Positions 15,001-33,000 of a stretch of DNA of 36,784 bases are shown in pieces (positions within the stretch are counted from its first letter, which is position 1; each line of letters opens with the position of its first letter). Source of the DNA: an uncultured Methanosarcinales archaeon (GTDB lineage Archaea; Nanobdellota; Nanobdellia; Woesearchaeales; CAZKBD01); contig CAZKBD010000008.1 of NCBI GenBank assembly GCA_964550945.1, positions 1-36,784 of the forward strand. The letters are read 5' to 3'. Made by a program: the position numbers.

Positions 15001-18000
15001 AGCAGATGACTTGACAATACAATTCAACAAGGATTATCCTTTAAAGCTTGAATACAAAACAATAGACAAAGTTACGATGAGTTTTATTTTGGCTCCAAGG
15101 GTAGAGAACGACTAGTTTCATACAAACTTCATATAAATAAATTAATCTTGCTTTTTGTTGCGTTATCTAGGAAGTCTGATATGTCTGCTATTTCTGAGAC
15201 CTCATCAATAAAGTCTTCCTTTTTCAGCCCCATCAATACCATTGATGTATCGCAAGCTTGAAATGTCGCTCCCAATTGTTTTAGTGTTTTTATCATTTCT
15301 GGGATATCCCTGATATTGTATTTTTTCATTAAACCCTTTATCAATCCTTTGCCTGCACCACAAAAATTGAACTTTGAAAGCTTTAAGTGATTTGAGCCTC
15401 CGCGATTTATAAAGCCAAACATTCTTTGGACAAAATTTTTTCCAACAAAAAGCTTGTCTTTTCTTATAATATTAAGGCCCCAGAATGTAAAAAATAGTTT
15501 TACATCCATTCCCTTTGCAGCAGCCCCTAAAGCTATTATCATGCCAGCAAGCGCTCTATCTAGGTCTCCGCTAAAAAAAACTATAGTTGCTTTTTCTTTT
15601 GCCATTTTATATGCCAGAACAGAAATGTTCGTAATCAATTAGGTCTTTAATTTTTGGGTTCTTACCGCATAAAGGGCAATTGGGATCTTTATTTAACTTT
15701 ACTTCTTTAAAGGACATAGCTAAAGCATCATACAATAACAGTCTTCCTTTTAATGGATTTCCTAATCCGAGTATTAGTTTTATTGTTTCTGTTGCCTGTA
15801 TAAGCCCTATAAGGCCAGGTAACACGCCTAAAACACCAGCTTCCTGGCAGCTTGGGACCTCTCCAGGAGGTGGGGGAAATGGATGCAAGCAGCGGTAACA
15901 AGGGCCATTATCTGGTATGAAAACAGTAGCCCTGCCTTCAAATTGAAATACAGAGCCATAAACATTGGGCTTTTTATCAAAGTAGCATGCATCATTTACT
16001 AAATATCTTGTGGCAAAGTTATCACAGCCGTCAACAACAATATCAAAGTTTTTTATTATATCCTTAACATTCTTTGAAGTTAACTTTTCTGCATAAGTAA
16101 TTATTTTCACATCAGGGTTAATAGACTCTAAAGTTTCCTTAGCTGATTCTACTTTTAACTTTCCAATATCCCTGCAGGAATGAAGAATCTGCCTTTGGAG
16201 ATTGCTTACATCAACCTTATCCATGTCTATTATGCCGATAGTGCCAACGCCTGCTGCAGCTAGATAGAACGCAACAGGAGAGCCTAAACCGCCAGCTCCA
16301 ACACACAATACCTTGGCTTTCTGCAGCTTTTTTTGTCCTCTGCCACCTACTTCGGGCAGTATTATATGGCGGCTGTATCTCTTGATCTGCTCATCATTAA
16401 ATCCAAAATTGTCTGTCATTTTAGTTTTTAGTTCTGTTGCGCTTCTATATCCTCCACTATTATTCCAAAATCTTTTAGATATTTCTCTCCTTTTTGTATT
16501 TCTTCAATATCACCATTCAGCTCTATCAACACCCAGCCATAATCATTTGTCACATTTGCTTTTCTTATATTAGTAACCACCTTAAATTTATGGCCTAGAT
16601 TATAGATTAATGGTTCTTTTACCAGCTTTTTTGGGAATGTTAGATTTAAGACTTTTGTTGCCATTTTAGCCTCCAGCAATGGAAGGAACGATTGTAACTT
16701 CCTTGCCTTCTGTTTTAGTCTGCTCTTTCTGCAAAAACCTGATGTCCTCATCGCCAACATACACATTGATAAATTTCCTTATTTTCCCTGACTCGTCTAA
16801 AAGCCTTTTCTTTATGCCGGGATATGTTTTATCCAGATTTTCAATTGCATCTATAACAGTGCTGCCCTCTACTTCTACCTCTGATTTTTGGCCAGTAAGT
16901 TTCCTTAATGGAGTGGGTATTTTTATATTAACCATTTTGCACCTCCTATGCTAAGTTTCTATGCTAGGTTTTACACACTCTTCCATAGCTTATTTTATTC
17001 CACGCTCTTTCATGAATGTAGTAGCTAAATAGCTTAATTATAGCATCAGTAAATCCAATACCAAGTGATAAAACTATTTGTCCAGTAAACAAAAAGGCCA
17101 CTATTGCAGTAATAAATGTCGCAACAATCCGCCAAGTTATTGTTTTGGCTATGCTTCTTTTATGGCTTTCCAAAATAATCACCTAACCTCATTCAAAAGC
17201 CTCCCAGCCTCTTTTTCAAACCCGTATTCTTTTGAAGCTTTTATCAAATCATCCTCTATTCTTCCTATTCCTGTACCAGTTATATTGGCTACAACAACAT
17301 CATTTTCACTGAAGATTCCTAATTTAGCTGCCTTTATTATTCCGGCTATTGCCACGCCTCCAACAAATTGAGCAAATATCCCTTCTTTGAAGTATAAGTC
17401 AATTGTTGCCTTTACTATCTCCTTTTCAGCTACTTTAAAGCCTCCTCCTTTGCTTTCCGCTATCACGTCTAATGCTTGGTGTCCAGAGCCGGGTTTTCCA
17501 ATTGCTATTGACTTAGCAATGGTATTTGGGTTTTTGATAGGATGGATATCCTCTTTTCCAATTGCATCAATTATTGGAGAGCATTGTTCTGGCTGTACAC
17601 CCCACATTTTTATTGGATTATGAAAAAGATTAATGGTCTTCAGCTCATTAATGCCTTTATATGCTGAACAAAATAATGCGCCTGATCCTAAAGGATAAAA
17701 TATGTTTACTGTTTTATCTCTATTAATAAGTTTTTTTAACTGCAGGGCTATTTCTGTGCCAGATGTCTTAGATCCTTCTTTGTAATACGGCCTAAAACTG
17801 TTATTTGGAACAAAATTTGTCTTTTTCCCAGTAGTTTTTATCTCTTCTTCATTTGCCTTGTCACAATCATTCATTGCTTTTATGTTGCAATCATCATAGC
17901 TTAAGTCAAGCTCTTTTAAGTCATCTGGGCTTGGAAGGTATTGCCTTATTGCATCTTTTTTAATCTCTCCTAAACTTTTTGGCACATAAATAAAAGGCTT

Positions 18001-30000: not shown

Positions 30001-33000
30001 CTGTTTCCTGTTGCTGCTTCTGATTGTGCTATCTCATTTTCATGGTGGGGAAAAATCAAATCAACGCCTCCTGCATGGATATCGAATGTCTCTCCTAGAT
30101 ATTTTAACGACATTGCAGAGCATTCTATATGCCAACTTGGCCTTCCTTTACCCAACTCGGTTTCCCAGAAAACATCTCCGTCATTTTCTGTGTAGCCTTT
30201 CCACAAAGCAAAGTCCTTTGCATCTTTTTTATCATAAGAGTCTTGCCTTATTCTAGCACCATTTTTAAGGCCCTTAGTATTTGTGCCGCTCAGCTTCCCA
30301 TACCCCTTAAATTTAGAAATGTCATAGTAAATTGATCCATCTTTTGCCTTATAGGCATAGCCTTTATCAATTAAATTTTTTATTAAAGATGCCATTTCTT
30401 CAATGTTTTCTGTTGCTTTAGGGTATGCATCTGCTTCTTGAATGCCTAAGGATTTAATATCCTCAAAAAACGCCTTTGTATACCTAGCAGTATACTTTTT
30501 TAGAGAAATGCCTTCTTTTTGCGAAGCTGCTATTGTTTTATCGTCTATATCAGTTATATTCATGATGTGTTTTACCTTGAAACCCCCATATTTTAAATAT
30601 CTTTTAAGAATATCAATGCATAAATATGCTCTGCAATTACCAATATGAGCAAAATCATAGACAGTTGGACCGCAAGAATAGATTCTAACTAAGCTGTCTT
30701 TTAATGGCTTAAACACTTCTTTTCTTTTTGTTAATGTGTTATATAATTTTAATGCCATTATCCCTTGATTGGTTTTGTCAAAAACCAGAGGTTTTTGAGC
30801 ATGCTCAGAAACGCTTGCGTTTCTGACATATTAATTCCTCTTTGAACTCTTTTCCAGAGTCATTTAGTTGGTATGACCTTATTGCCATTACGCTTCCTTT
30901 ATAAATGTTAACTATTATGTAGGATATAACTGGCTGCGCTATATTTAAATCTGTGCCAGATGGTCTTGGCGGATGGTCTGGGTGAGAATGGTAAACACCA
31001 ATAATATCCAAGCCTTTCTTTCTAGCATAATCGTCAATCTTTTTATATTCTTTAGGGTCAATTTCAAATCTATCAACCGCTCTTTCTTTAATAATATTTT
31101 TAGCATCAATAACCTCTTTTATATATTTTTTTTCATTCTTTATATTTCCCAATAATAAGCCACAACCTTCATTTGGATAGGTCTTCTTTAAATGTTTGAC
31201 CATTTTATCAATATCTTCTTGGTTGATAAAAACACCGGAATATTCATCCCCCCAAAAATCCTTGCTGATGTATCTATCGCCATGGTCAGGAAAAACCGTT
31301 ACAACTACCCCTTTTTTCAAGCTATTTGCAACTTGTAAAGCGCCAGCAGCAGCAGCCCCAGAACTTAATCCCACAAATAAGCCCTCTTCTTTAGCAATCC
31401 TTTTTACCATATTATAGGCATCCTCTGTTTTTACCTTGATTTTTTTGTCCAGATACTCCTGCTCATATATTTTAGGGACTATGGAGCTTTCAATGTGCTT
31501 TAAGCCTTCCAGACCGTGCATCTCTTCTGCAGGCTCTATAGCAATTACTTTAATGCCCATATTAAGATGTTTTAGCCTTCTTCCTGCACCAATTAAAGTT
31601 CCGCCTGTCCCAACTCCGGTCACAAAATGAGTGATTTTGCCGTTAGTTTGATTCCATATCTCAACTCCAGTTCCCAAGAAATGCGCCCTGCTGTTTGAAA
31701 GGTTTGTGTACTGATCAGGTTTAAAATAAATATCAGGATGTTTTTTATATTCTTTCTGGCATTCTATCATCGCTCCATCCGAACCGTCTAATGGGCTAGT
31801 GAAGACAACATCTGCGCCAAACTCCTTAATAATATTCTTTCTTTCTTCACTAACGTTTAAAGGCATAAACAATTTGACTCTATATCCCTTTAGTTTACCA
31901 ATAACAGCCAAAGCAATTCCAGTGTTGCCTGAAGTTGATTCGAGAATAATCTTGTCTTTTTTTAATTTTCCTAATCTTTCACCATCAGCCACCATTTGAT
32001 ACGCTGCTCTATCCTTAACTGAGCCGCTTAAATTAAACCACTCTGCTTTTGCAAATACCTTAACCTTCTTGTTTTTATTTAAGTTCTTTAATTCAATTAA
32101 AGGCGTGTTTCCTATTAACCTAAATATATCTTTATTCATCTTTTTTTGATAAGGATTCTCCAATCTGTATTATTCAATTTTTTAACTTCTAAGATTTTGT
32201 TTCCTTCATTGCTCATGCTTCTTGGCACGTTTTCTGTTGCTGGTTGATGATCTAGTATGATCTCTAGTATCTGCCCGGATTTTAGCTCTTCTATAGCTAA
32301 TTTTGATTTTACAAATGTATATGGGCATATTTCGCCTTTAATGTTGATTGTTTTGTCAAACTTCATTTTTTCTCCAAATATGGTCTTTAAATAGAAAATC
32401 AAAAGTAAGATATAAACTTATTGGCAATGAGGTGCATTACAGCAACAGCTACAACAAGAAGGAATACAAGCATGATTATTTTGCTGTTTACTCATAGTTA
32501 GTTTATGGTTACGAACTTATTTATAAATTTTTTGTTTCTATTATTCTTTTTGGAATATGCTACCGATAAATATAAAAATAGGCCAGGATTACCTTATTGA
32601 GATGGAATACTCGCTAAGGCATAAAACATTATATGAATCATTTTTTAGAAGAAAGAATGTTTTTCTTGATATATCTATGATGCTAATGGCAGTCGTATTC
32701 CTTGCATTCTTATCAAATCTTTACATCCCGCTATGGCCTGTGCCAATTACTGGCCAGACATTTGGCATATTCCTTATAGCTTTTTGGTTCGGCTCAAGAA
32801 AGGGATTAGCTTCAATTGCGCTTTATGTATTGGCTGGGCTAATAGGATTTGGTGTTTTTGCGCAGCATTCATTTGGCATCAAAGTCATTTTAGGGCCCAC
32901 AGGAGGATATATCCTAGGATTCCTTGCATCTGTATTTCTTGTTGGCTACTTGATTGAAAAGGGATATGGAAGGACAAAAACATCTGTTTTGTATTGTGTT

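Follow-up and report, generated by a model that had tools for sequence, protein, structure and literature searches.

A co-regulated gene row of a Woesearchaeon encoding a probable route from sulfate to cysteine and homocysteine together with siroheme genes

Organization of the sulfur gene row

The window, i.e. the whole stretch of 36,784 nucleotides analysed here, carries 22 close-packed genes, all on the minus strand and spanning 15129-32402, which were assigned by Pfam and NCBIfam profile searches (Table 1). In transcription order, the first half encodes TusA, CysM fused to Prok-JAB, CysRS, thioredoxin, DUF169, a NIR_SIR sulfite reductase, a second TusA, a precorrin-2 dehydrogenase N-domain, HemB and HemC, followed by CobA-HemD, HemA, HemL, CysH, CysD, CysN fused to TusA, a threonine-synthase-like (ThrC-like) enzyme, DUF2061, ThiS, NIL, ThiF and a DsrE2-like protein in the second half. 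We confirm the existence and the family assignments of this one-strand row: all families named in the genome-wide survey's note were found again, and domain search matched the flanking PCNA, RNase J and HerA/NurA genes. Correcting ORF starts removes the apparent overlaps of NIL with ThiS and of DsrE2 with ThiF. The gene order is kept in four metagenome contigs, most genes being 50-90% identical at the amino-acid level. The source genome is a metagenome-assembled genome of 177 contigs (about 3-5x depth, 92.5% complete), and its host is a Woesearchaeon with a large genome, i.e. a groundwater DPANN archaeon with tiny cells.

Table 1. Features of the row and its surroundings (window coordinates)
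Position	Strand	Feature	Basis or remark
11185..12814	-	Candidate only: short PiT-family permease with PhoU_div partner, possible CysP-like sulfate permease	Profile scores
15129..15605	-	DsrE2-like sulfur-relay protein	Pfam, NCBIfam
15607..16419	-	ThiF/MoeB/UbaA-type E1 adenylyltransferase without rhodanese domain	Pfam, NCBIfam
16428..16664	-	NIL-domain protein	Pfam
16666..16935	-	ThiS/MoaD-like sulfur carrier, Gly-Gly end	Pfam, NCBIfam
16964..17182	-	DUF2061 small membrane protein	Pfam; absent from the survey's note
17179..18504	-	Threonine-synthase-like PLP enzyme, N-terminal 4-Cys ribbon; proposed MetM-like, ThiS-thiocarboxylate-dependent homocysteine synthase	Pfam, NCBIfam, row comparison; corrected start 18504
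18550..18565	-	Operator palindrome 4	14 nt before unit 4 TATA box
18568..20043	-	CysN GTPase subunit with C-terminal TusA fusion	Pfam, NCBIfam, motifs
20040..20921	-	CysD, sulfate adenylyltransferase small subunit	PP-loop SIGKDS; Pfam, NCBIfam
20923..21638	-	CysH, Fe-S type APS reductase (CC, CxxC, ECGLH)	Broken only by scaffold gap 21466-21475; corrected start 21638
21686..21701	-	Operator palindrome 3	14 nt before unit 3 TATA box
21705..22949	-	HemL glutamate-1-semialdehyde aminomutase	Pfam, NCBIfam
22924..23808	-	HemA glutamyl-tRNA reductase, short, without dimerisation domain	Pfam, NCBIfam
23805..25115	-	CobA (uroporphyrinogen-III methyltransferase) fused to HemD	Pfam, NCBIfam
25094..25909	-	HemC hydroxymethylbilane synthase	Pfam, NCBIfam
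25893..26831	-	HemB porphobilinogen synthase	Pfam, NCBIfam
26828..27253	-	Precorrin-2 dehydrogenase-like NAD domain (SirC/CysG-N like)	Without C-terminal domain
27253..27489	-	TusA-type sulfur carrier, second	Pfam
27486..28433	-	Small siroheme sulfite reductase, inserted 2x[4Fe-4S] ferredoxin domain	Pfam, NCBIfam
28434..28979	-	DUF169 protein, conserved partner in such rows	Pfam, row comparison
28981..29310	-	Thioredoxin (CAPC), likely APS reductase reductant	Pfam, NCBIfam
29359..29374	-	Operator palindrome 2	14 nt before unit 2 TATA box
29364..30758	-	Cysteinyl-tRNA synthetase, second copy, order's own type	Pfam, NCBIfam
30805..32139	-	CysM-JAB/JAMM peptidase fusion: cysteine synthase and carrier-releasing hydrolase	Pfam, NCBIfam, motifs
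32136..32366	-	TusA-type sulfur carrier, Cys-Pro motif	Pfam, NCBIfam
32418..32495	-	Polycysteine mini-ORF with 7 Cys among 25 codons, leaderless	Candidate cysteine-sensing leader at row head
32542..32557	-	Operator palindrome 1, TATTCC-N4-(A/G)GAATA	Unit 1; abuts start of divergent BioY

Sulfate reduction and siroheme genes

The only run of N in the window (10 N) lies inside CysH and splits one gene into two halves, the protein of 161 amino acids that had been noted as a short CysH and an ORF of 67 amino acids upstream. A public contig (run X1) covering 21012-21558 has no differing letters and one extra letter, giving a gap of 11 nt, and the CysH frame is restored because these 11 letters bridge the gap; the shortness is a scaffold-gap artefact. 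Unbroken CysH homologues are found in three further loci (L014, L017, L052). CysN shows the GTPase motifs, with its TusA domain at residues 426-491. The sulfite reductase contains CX5C, CX3C and two CX2CX2CX3C motifs; six relatives are 80-88% identical, and the next nearest protein 37%. For sirohydrochlorin ferrochelatase, no CbiX match was found in the genome, and the SirC-like protein of the row is without the C-terminal domain.

Neither a SulP profile match nor a tblastn match to TauE or Sat was obtained in the genome. The candidate PiT permease matches ambiguously: the Bacillus-type sulfate permease model gives 92 bits (cut-off 400) and PitA gives 104 (cut-off 800), and permease and partner occur in one of 20 relatives. 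The missing transporter, the sulfite-detoxifying Fsr as closest solved relative of the sulfite reductase, and YedF-like selenium-metabolism models scoring best, albeit under cut-off, for both TusA proteins would fit a row handling sulfite or another oxyanion (selenium, detoxification) rather than supplying sulfur amino acids. We regard this as very improbable, since CysD, CysN and CysH are the assimilatory set and CysM, CysRS, the ThrC-like enzyme, the polycysteine leader and the operator common to MetH and MetK indicate amino-acid supply.

Cysteine genes and sulfur carriers

All three TusA units carry the Cys-Pro motif. The CysM-JAB fusion has the PLP lysine within SVKDR and, in its JAB domain at residues 317-423, the H-x-H...S-x-x-D motif. 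CysRS, listed in the survey's note as bacterial-type, is of the order's own type and not foreign: it matches CysRS of 40 of 40 same-order genomes with 39-64% identity and is a second copy. Nothing above cut-off was found in the genome for CysE, and a 2-Hacid_dh fragment of 58 amino acids is the sole match for O-phosphoserine supply.

ThiS, ThiF and JAB could instead constitute a general SAMP/UbaA/desampylase system for protein tagging, tRNA thiolation or molybdopterin, not dedicated to amino acids. This would agree with the top NCBIfam names, SAMP1 (50 bits, cut-off 60), UbaA (348, cut-off 450) and desampylase (66, cut-off 130), and with tblastn of the genome giving no second good ThiF or ThiS copy. 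However, all three scores stay under cut-off, the fusion of JAB with CysM recurs in many metagenome proteins, ThiS-ThiF follow the ThrC-like gene in eight of 13 loci, and a printed operon class ties rhodanese-less E1 enzymes plus SirA/TusA to sulfate assimilation (PMC1779556), making a purely general system unlikely, although the proteins may have a dual use.

The ThrC-like enzyme and a probable homocysteine branch

The genes for the ThrC-like enzyme, ThiS, NIL and ThiF form a separate module, which other Woesearchaeota as well as Altiarchaeota and CPR bacteria have conserved; the order ThrC-like, ThiS, ThiF recurs in the eight genome loci mentioned, and NIL precedes the ThrC-like gene in four CPR loci. 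The survey's note had listed the ThrC-like enzyme correctly, whereas its cysteine-only route leaves this probable homocysteine module unexplained. Docking of ThiS on the ThrC-like enzyme was predicted with a score of 0.63 compared to 0.01 for the best control; a score this high is obtained for 116 of 157 solved complexes and for two of 215 mismatched pairs. Three runs share at least 90% of the contacts, with a partner pLDDT of 85-86 and the ThiS tail at 84-88 in the interface. Among alternative homocysteine routes, neither MetE nor HcyBio was found in the genome, and Cys_Met_Meta_PP reached just 30 bits. The genome encodes MetH, MTHFR, aspartate kinase and homoserine dehydrogenase; homoserine kinase was not found in it because the sole ThrB-like match belongs to the MEP operon as IspE.

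No ThrC homologue besides the ThrC-like protein was found in the source genome; this protein therefore could (also) be a threonine synthase, in which case the adjoining ThiS/ThiF would serve other tasks and the row would make cysteine only. The presence of aspartate kinase and homoserine dehydrogenase supports this, as do threonine synthase models being the top NCBIfam names and threonine synthases being the closest solved structures. Nevertheless, every such model scores under cut-off (169.6 versus 303; 152.8 versus 167.1), and proteins so named are 38-40% identical, while the group at 50-72% is named merely "PLP-dependent enzyme". One genome (G417) has the ThrC-like gene and a second ThrC homologue, 30% identical. 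Together with the linkage to ThiS-ThiF, the predicted docking and the operator that the gene has in common with MetH and MetK, this makes a threonine synthase unlikely, and the module most likely represents a MetM/MetO-like homocysteine branch.

Promoters, operator and candidate leader ORF

The row had been described as a single supraoperon, but it consists of four leaderless, co-regulated transcription units, each with its own promoter behind the palindrome TATTCC-N4-GGAATA, an operator native to the order, which lies 14 nt before the TATA box in all four. The window contains four palindromes compared to 0.26 expected, a number reached in none of 100 shuffles; genome-wide, a loose operator plus TATA pattern gives 11 matches versus 4-9 in Markov simulations. 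Contigs C25 and C47 of the source genome have the operator in common with the row, MetH and MetK are preceded by the same operator, and the palindrome also adjoins the gene of an HTH-CBS regulator; 17 of 30 relatives have this protein, and the palindrome stands beside its gene in seven of 11 relative loci. The row is therefore probably under a methionine/SAM signal mediated by the putative HTH-CBS regulator and the operator. Rfam gave no SAM riboswitch match.

The polycysteine mini-ORF is conserved, 24 nt past the TATA box, in all three loci covering the row head (window, L017, L014), and may sense the cysteine supply. No conserved RNA structure was found that would link the Cys tract with the following ribosome-binding site (window leader z 0.32), and none of the listed runs holding the stretch is recorded as RNA.

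Host and distribution

The contig is a genuine Woesearchaeal one. That it is mis-binned or chimeric, or that the row is a recent unintegrated island, might be suspected from the scaffold gap mid-row, from families otherwise absent from the phylum, from a CysM domain nearest to Planctomycetota and Omnitrophica proteins (56-64%) and from the resemblance of hem block and sulfite reductase to Altiarchaeota rows. Against this reading, order-typical genes stand on both sides of the gap: to the left RNase J, with 42-69% identity to its counterpart in 17 of 20 same-order genomes, and to the right CysRS. The gap itself lies between halves of one bridged gene. Composition is typical of the genome: the contig ranks 44th of 81 by tetranucleotide distance, and 13% of random pieces are more distant than the row. 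G+C is 0.353 for the contig and 0.366 for the genome. On other contigs, MetH and MetK stand behind the operator found at the four promoters of the row, and throughout the order this operator accompanies the regulator; locus L017 repeats the row with the same BioY/DUF1284 flank. We thus consider a foreign row extremely unlikely, whereas parts of the row were likely acquired anciently.

The rarity claimed for the phylum stands for the sulfite reductase and ALAD, each found in none of 400 other phylum genomes, but not for CysD, found in 45 of 400. The claim of novelty is narrowed by the related Altiarchaeota rows, by the operon type being in print since 2006 (PMC1779556) and by a 2020 preprint listing assimilatory sulfate reduction genes for Woesearchaeota MAGs. 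A 17-kb row for a probable sulfate-to-cysteine/homocysteine route that includes the genes for the sulfite reductase cofactor is very unusual for DPANN archaea.

Proposed pathway

Our data suggest that the row is host-integrated and probably comprises four co-regulated units for assimilatory sulfate reduction and protein-thiocarboxylate-dependent synthesis of cysteine and homocysteine. As read from the sequence, CysD and CysN(-TusA) would convert sulfate to APS, Fe-S type CysH with the co-encoded thioredoxin would reduce APS to sulfite, and the small siroheme/[4Fe-4S] sulfite reductase would use its own ferredoxin domain to form sulfide, with siroheme supplied by HemA, HemL, HemB, HemC, HemD-CobA and precorrin-2 dehydrogenase. 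ThiF would adenylate the Gly-Gly end of ThiS, which would receive sulfur from sulfide directly or via TusA/DsrE2 carriers standing in for the absent rhodanese domain. The CysM domain would then join ThiS-COSH to O-phosphoserine, the fused JAB freeing cysteine, and the ThrC-like enzyme would form homocysteine from ThiS-COSH and O-phosphohomoserine, to be converted to methionine by MetH/MTHFR encoded outside the row. The core route from sulfate via APS, sulfite, sulfide and ThiS-thiocarboxylate to cysteine, already proposed in the survey's note together with the CysM-JAB fusion and own tetrapyrrole genes, agrees with domains, catalytic motifs and context. It can no longer be called self-contained, as a sulfate transporter, a ferrochelatase, an electron donor and a homoserine kinase could not be assigned.

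Comparison with known systems

The same kind of pathway is already known from bacteria, the HcyS/HcyD/HcyF/MetY system of Wolinella reportedly having been characterized biochemically, and occurs in Altiarchaeota. The operon type was listed in 2006 for Geobacter, Wolinella, Firmicutes, Chlorobi, Actinobacteria and Pyrobaculum (PMC1779556). These operons likewise combine a rhodanese-less E1 and TusA/SirA with JAB, a ThiS-like carrier and sulfate-reduction enzymes, whereas our row has the ThrC-like enzyme instead of O-acetylhomoserine sulfhydrylase, lacks APS kinase and ABC transporter, adds CysM-JAB and CysN-TusA fusions, DsrE2, DUF169, NIL, a CysRS copy and the full siroheme pathway, and resides in a DPANN archaeon. 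The Mycobacterium CysO/CysM/Mec route, class 4d of the same survey (PMC1779556), also relies on a homologue of cysteine synthase B together with a JAMM hydrolase and a Gly-Gly carrier, and the solved CysM chains 3dki and 3dwg are among the matches to our CysM. In contrast, CysM and JAB are fused here, the E1 lacks the rhodanese domain of MoeZ, and the CysM domain matches enterobacterial CysM (4e-67) better than mycobacterial CysM (4e-50).

The Streptomyces MetM/MetO/MoeZ/Mec homocysteine route (Hasebe et al.), as far as outlined in the GapMind 2026 table (PMC13759103) and the discussion in PMC12172450, resembles the row in its described make-up, in that a threonine-synthase homologue adjoins a ThiS-like carrier gene and E1 and JAB belong to the system; the row differs from that outline by its HTH-CBS operator instead of a SAM riboswitch, the N-terminal 4-Cys ribbon and the NIL partner. 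The siroheme domain with an inserted two-cluster ferredoxin domain is common to the sulfite reductase and the Fsr C-terminal half/AsrC/Dsr-LP group III proteins (7np8, 7npa; TIGR02912), with a best PDB match of 7e-35 over residues 31-303. The F420H2 dehydrogenase half of Fsr is absent, the AsrC model gives 146 bits (cut-off 324), and the row has neither AsrA nor AsrB.

The Altiarchaeota rows (G484 contig 3, L052; G483 contig 19, L042 and L051; G486 contig 136, L054) have ThrC-like, ThiS, ThiF, TusA, thioredoxin, DUF169, CysH and sulfite reductase genes as well as the SirC-HemB-HemC-CobA/HemD-HemA-HemL block in identical internal order, but their modules are ordered differently and the sulfite reductase is just 34% identical. 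G486 has CysH-CysD-DUF2061-CysN/TusA, i.e. DUF2061 between CysD and CysN, whereas G484 carries Sat in place of CysDN, a SepCysS-like enzyme in place of CysM-JAB/CysRS, and additional TauE, ThiI-like and SerA-like genes. Mycobacterial polycysteine short ORFs (bioRxiv 10.1101/834739) are likewise leaderless Cys-run mini-ORFs forming the first cistron of a cysteine-metabolism operon, while the candidate leader reported here belongs to an archaeon and is known from its sequence.

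Gene row, host and relatives

The window carries an unbroken run of minus-strand ORFs, within which Pfam and NCBIfam assign families to 22 genes (see the table), the number also reported in the genome-wide survey's note; the families named there stand as well, and to them we add DUF2061, which that note had left unnamed. On one flank the row is accompanied by a Rad50-like ATPase, HerA, NurA, an LTD protein, an AmmeMemoRadiSam enzyme, a PiT permease with its PhoU_div partner, RNase J and PCNA, and on the opposite flank by BioY, DUF1284, ArsR, SHOCT proteins and a methyltransferase. 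The contig is authentic and belongs to a Woesearchaeal host, represented by a 1.97-Mb MAG of 177 contigs (92.5% complete, 2.3% contamination). RNase J, left of the assembly gap, has homologues with 42-69% identity in 17 of 20 same-order genomes, and the CysRS of the row, right of the gap, has homologues with 39-64% identity in 40 of 40 same-order genomes. By tetranucleotide distance the contig ranks 44th of 81, and the row is no outlier in composition, 13% of random pieces lying farther out. None of the listed public runs containing this stretch is recorded as RNA.

Sulfite reduction and tetrapyrrole synthesis are rare in the phylum, NIR_SIR and ALAD each being found in 0 of the 400 other genomes of the phylum that were screened (completeness 90% or more). 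CysD exceeds its cut-off in 45 of these 400 (including the unpublished G262 and G409), showing that sulfate activation is not rare. For the small siroheme sulfite reductase of the row (Sir) we found six relatives with 80-88% identity and otherwise none above 37%; among 40 same-order genomes there is no full-length match, the matches covering the ferredoxin insert only. The gene order recurs in four metagenome contigs (L014-L017), where most genes are 50-90% identical; L017 shares the BioY/DUF1284 flank of the window, and L014 is without CysRS and Trx. An Altiarchaeota relative (G484) has a 16-kb one-strand row of similar families, and a second (G486), which of five such Altiarchaeota-type genomes is the one with CysD, has the order CysH-CysD-DUF2061-CysN/TusA. 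Comparison of the modules with these loci presents the row of the window as the fullest assembly of modules also combined in Altiarchaeota; the two lineages thus have gene modules in common. The position of CysM-JAB and CysRS is occupied in G484 by a PLP enzyme of SepSecS/SepCysS-like type together with a TauE/SafE permease.

DPANN archaea are usually regarded as auxotrophs drawing amino acids and cofactors from their hosts. The Woesearchaeon described here, with a genome of about 2 Mb, carries genes for sulfate reduction, siroheme and both sulfur amino acids, tied to the order's own regulator, and its lineage may live more independently. The row is of the same kind as the operons described by Iyer et al. 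in 2006, which combine a ThiS-like carrier, JAB, an E1 enzyme without rhodanese domain, SirA/TusA and sulfate-reduction enzymes (PMC1779556). For Woesearchaeota, a 2018 survey reports no more than a partial sulfate assimilation pathway, in 2 of 19 (PMC5994134), and a 2020 preprint names cysH and asr/cysJ in MAGs without giving detail (10.1101/2020.08.09.243345). In the main text of PMC8421398 there is no mention of sulfate or siroheme, and such a row is not described in the examined papers on siroheme in DPANN. What we rate as new is that the host is a DPANN archaeon and that the row includes its own siroheme pathway, together with the ThrC-like branch, the fusions and the arrangement of the regulatory sites.

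Features of the window and of related loci (window coordinates unless another contig is named; empty cells, nothing reported)
Feature	Location	Strand	Evidence or remark
AmmeMemoRadiSam-system radical SAM enzyme, left flank	8547-9554	minus	378 bits, cut-off 220
Short PiT permease and PhoU_div partner	11185-12814	minus	3 kb from the row
Unbroken run of ORFs	15129-32402	minus	
Row, start: TusA; CysM fused to Prok-JAB; CysRS; thioredoxin (Trx); DUF169		minus	Pfam, NCBIfam
Row, next: 315-aa NIR_SIR sulfite reductase with inserted two-cluster ferredoxin domain; TusA		minus	
Row, next: 141-aa precorrin-2-dehydrogenase-like NAD domain; HemB; HemC; CobA-HemD fusion; short HemA; HemL		minus	
Row, next: CysH; CysD; CysN with C-terminal TusA domain		minus	
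Row, end: ThrC-like PLP enzyme; DUF2061; ThiS; NIL; ThiF without rhodanese domain; DsrE2-like		minus	
DUF2061 small membrane protein	16964-17182	minus	
CysH, joined frame	21638 to 20923	minus	238 aa
N run	21466-21475		only one of the window
Stretch spanned by contig of public run X1	21012-21558		548-nt contig
DUF169	28434-28979	minus	
Operator palindromes	18550, 21686, 29359, 32542	minus	motif search and TATA spacing
Polycysteine mini-ORF	32418-32495	minus	25 codons, 7 Cys
Unit 1: mini-ORF, TusA, CysM-JAB, CysRS			
Unit 2: Trx to HemL			
Unit 3: CysH, CysD, CysN-TusA			
Unit 4: ThrC-like to DsrE2			
Operator palindrome before MetH-MTHFR	C25:9696-9711		
Operator palindrome between MetK and divergent regulator	C47:7931-7946		
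HTH_3+CBS regulator	C47:7324-7890	minus	
Second CysRS	C66:9228-10457		cut by contig end
Third CysRS, C-terminal fragment	C45:14380-14709		
Mini-ORF, metagenome contig L017	L017 5805-5867		20 codons, 7 Cys
Mini-ORF, metagenome contig L014	L014 1469-1540		23 codons, 7 Cys
DUF2061, Altiarchaeota contig L054	L054 2322-2519		
SepSecS/SepCysS-like enzyme, Altiarchaeota locus L052 (in G484)	L052 14474-15649	minus	
G484 row, first part: ThrC-like, ThiS, ThiF, ThiI-like, TusA, Trx, DUF169, SepCysS-like, TauE, CysH			
G484 row, rest: Sat, TusA, Sir, SerA-like, SirC, HemB, HemC, CobA-HemD, HemA, HemL			

Sulfate activation, sulfite reduction and siroheme

Sulfate activation is encoded by CysD with its PP-loop (362 against a cut-off of 195 for NF003587) and by CysN with P-loop and NKxD motif (NKMD; 348 against a cut-off of 336 for TIGR02034). 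The genome-wide survey's note had held the shortness of CysH against a complete route. This shortness is an artefact: the 161-aa CysH is preceded by a 67-aa ORF whose match is to the N-terminal portion of the CysH model, and the only N run of the window separates the two halves, which are out of frame at its ten letters. A contig of the public run X1 spans this region with one extra letter behind 21465 and no other letters, so that the true gap is 11 nt and the joined gene (163+11+543 = 717 nt) forms a single frame; X1 may be the window's own source sample, and the agreement is therefore a check on the assembly, not an independent biological observation. In L014, L017 and L052 the equivalent position is taken by an intact homologue (232-237 aa). 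The truncated half scores 229 against a cut-off of 235 for TIGR02055, and CysH carries the CC and CxxC pairs and the C-terminal ECGLH as Fe-S APS reductases do, a type for which no APS kinase is required.

Sir combines the Pfam domains NIR_SIR and NIR_SIR_ferr and possesses CX5C and CX3C motifs together with two CX2CX2CX3C motifs; with 146 bits against a cut-off of 324.1 for TIGR02912 it is not assigned to AsrC. For its cofactor the row encodes HemA, HemL, HemB, HemC, HemD, SUMT and precorrin-2 dehydrogenase, all scoring over or near their NCBIfam cut-offs. The 141-aa SirC-like protein aligns to residues 23-158 of 3dfz and is without the C-terminal domain of CysG-N/Met8p/SirC, and no CbiX-type sirohydrochlorin ferrochelatase was found in the source genome.

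As to uptake, the source genome has no SulP sulfate transporter, and tblastn found neither TauE nor Sat in it. The short PiT permease next to the row, present with its partner in 1 of 20 relatives, scores alike to the models of PitA and of the Bacillus-type sulfate permease CysP, far below the cut-off in both cases.

The predicted cysteine branch

All features expected for a carrier-dependent cysteine synthesis are present, i.e. the Gly-Gly end of ThiS, the E1 adenylyltransferase, the PLP lysine of CysM and the JAMM motif H-x-H...S-x-x-D; the row further holds three TusA Cys-Pro motifs, and ThiF has two CxxC pairs. All nine aligned ThiS sequences terminate in GG, and as the ThiS of the row has no extension behind it, JAB would be needed for product release and not for carrier processing. 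In the CysO/CysM/Mec route the E1 enzyme MoeZ is fused to a rhodanese domain, whereas the ThiF of the row (270 aa) is not and matches MoeZ over its 17-274 part only; in place of the rhodanese domain the row has TusA and DsrE2, as in operon class 4e (PMC1779556). CysM-JAB fusions are common among metagenome proteins (43-57% identity). As an indirect observation on O-phosphoserine, the putative substrate, no CysE of the source genome exceeds its cut-off (best score 42 bits, cut-off 211). Of a SerA-like gene one fragment was seen.

Two further CysRS copies lie on other contigs of the source genome: the one on C66 shares 67% identity with the copy in the row, and the C-terminal fragment on C45 is 80% identical in DNA to the C66 copy and hence not the same sequence. 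These copies may be paralogues or reflect a strain mixture.

A candidate homocysteine branch

The row of the window and that of G484 already encode a cysteine-forming enzyme (CysM-JAB and SepCysS-like, respectively), so the ThrC-like protein, which has the SFKDRP PLP lysine motif, should have another task. ThrC-family enzymes use O-phosphohomoserine. In Streptomyces, the ThrC homologue MetM (UniProt A0A059WBP2 in PMC13759103) is described as forming homocysteine from O-phosphohomoserine and MetO-thiocarboxylate (PMC13759103, PMC12172450); the ThrC-like/ThiS pair resembles MetM/MetO in that a gene for a ThrC-family PLP enzyme adjoins one for a ThiS-like carrier. At 62-72% identity the relatives of the ThrC-like protein bear the labels Woesearchaeota and Altiarchaeota, at 50-54% Myxococcales, Patescibacteria and Methylomirabilis, and proteins named threonine synthase by their sources are 38-40% identical. 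A ThrC homologue of any kind (E<=1e-10) occurs in 17 of 201 genomes of the order, including the unpublished G350, G451 and G474.

Scanning species genomes yielded 13 loci with a ThrC-like gene, of which eight (from Woesearchaeota, Altiarchaeota and one Caldisericum) have the order ThrC-like, ThiS, ThiF and often include TusA, DsrE2, Trx, DUF169, CysH or Sir. In four CPR loci (L043-L046; Peribacteria, Gracilibacteria, Patescibacteria) a NIL gene lies directly upstream of the ThrC-like gene, whose product is 52-54% identical, with no ThiS or ThiF within the stretch seen; L043 has a CysRS gene 1.7 kb downstream.

Modelling of the ThrC-like protein with ThiS gave a complex score of 0.63 (best control 0.01), a mark attained by 116 of 157 solved complexes and by 2 of 215 mismatched pairs, with at least 90% of contacts agreeing between runs and a partner pLDDT of 85-86. 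The modelled ThiS tail (84-88) contacts the N-terminal Cys ribbon (51-60) and the invariant loops 245-249, 285-287 and 348-353, which supports a predicted binding of ThiS to the ThrC-like enzyme with the tail at the active site. The source genome encodes MetH together with MTHFR, an aspartate kinase and a homoserine dehydrogenase; it has no MetE and no HcyBio, and one partial Cys_Met_Meta_PP match of 30 bits. No homoserine kinase was found in it, the single ThrB-like match being IspE of the MEP operon.

These observations point to a compact ThrC-like/ThiS/NIL module, putatively for homocysteine, spread among small-genome archaea and CPR bacteria. If this novel reading holds, the module would be the main homocysteine route in many DPANN, Altiarchaeota and CPR, a proposal that we regard, jointly with the two-sensor regulation of a prototroph discussed below, as possible and rather doubtful.

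A probable shared operator and a candidate polycysteine leader

In the window there are four copies of the 16-nt palindrome TATTCC-N-ATAAGAATA, where 0.26 would be expected, and 0 of 100 shuffles contain as many. All four copies lie on the strand of the row and precede the four units listed in the table. A TATA box follows each copy at a distance of exactly 14 nt, and 24-25 nt past the box comes an ATG, a distance implying leaderless mRNAs. The same composite of palindrome and TATA box precedes MetH-MTHFR, and also lies between MetK and a divergently transcribed HTH_3+CBS regulator. Orthologous sites are found ahead of CysH and Trx in L017, of CysH in L014, of Trx in L015 and of the module in the same-order genome G417. 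Of 30 same-order relatives, 17 have the HTH-CBS regulator, and in 7 of 11 relative loci the palindrome and TATA box stand beside its gene. Genome-wide, a loose operator and TATA pattern gives 11 matches against 4-9 simulated, which is no clear enrichment, and the bare 10-nt core gives 9 against about 6.7 expected; the case for the operator is therefore built on the 16-nt motif found in the window together with the constant spacing of 14 nt and the orthologous sites. The HTH-CBS protein, as repressor or activator, would act at the operator before the four units, MetH and MetK.

Unit 1 opens with a 25-codon ORF containing seven Cys codons, and equivalent mini-ORFs with seven Cys, 24 nt past the TATA box, are present in 3 of 3 loci extending over the head of the row (the window, L014, L017). 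Scanning of Altiarchaeota and other Woesearchaeota loci brought up no polycysteine ORF. By chance, short ORFs with five or more Cys are not uncommon (110 of the 23589 short ORFs in the genome), and Cys-richness alone is weak evidence. We know of no archaeal polycysteine leaderless attenuator ORF. In mycobacteria, leaderless polycysteine ORFs are described as cysteine-responsive attenuators (10.1101/834739), and by analogy we hypothesise that the mini-ORF may act as a ribosome-mediated cysteine sensor or attenuator; if true, the mycobacterial 'Cys ribulon' would have its first counterpart in Archaea. RNA folding of the leaders of the window (z 0.32), L014 (z 0.92) and L017 revealed no shared structure hiding the next ribosome-binding site; the strong hairpins close to the RBS of L017 (z -3.97) are not shared by the others. 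Rfam at the gathering threshold gave no match in the window, neither a SAM nor another riboswitch.

A candidate archaeal regulon can be drawn up from a single operator, the HTH-CBS regulator and the polycysteine leader. That two layered sensors, of kinds so far not reported from Archaea, are at work in a sulfur-amino-acid prototroph, the HTH-CBS protein at TATTCC-N4-GGAATA reading methionine/SAM and the mini-ORF reading cysteine, is a tentative proposal to which we give less than even odds by some distance.

DUF169 and accompanying genes

DUF169 accompanies Trx and TusA in Woesearchaeal and Altiarchaeal rows and stands out as a conserved partner in them. The subfamily is rare, with 78 cluster representatives (E<=1e-3) among 1.84 billion, and in the protein of the window an Asp replaces a near-invariant Cys found in 90% of relatives. 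It has no PDB sequence match at E<=1, and its confident model (pLDDT 92.3) has no Foldseek match at E<=0.001, the best VIA-align Z being 4.1; the idea that DUF169 is the missing ferrochelatase finds no support in these searches. DUF2061 stands in a neighbourhood of sulfate activation in the window and, in the Altiarchaeota contig L054, between CysD and CysN-TusA, and the radical SAM enzyme of the left flank scores well over its AmmeMemoRadiSam-system cut-off.
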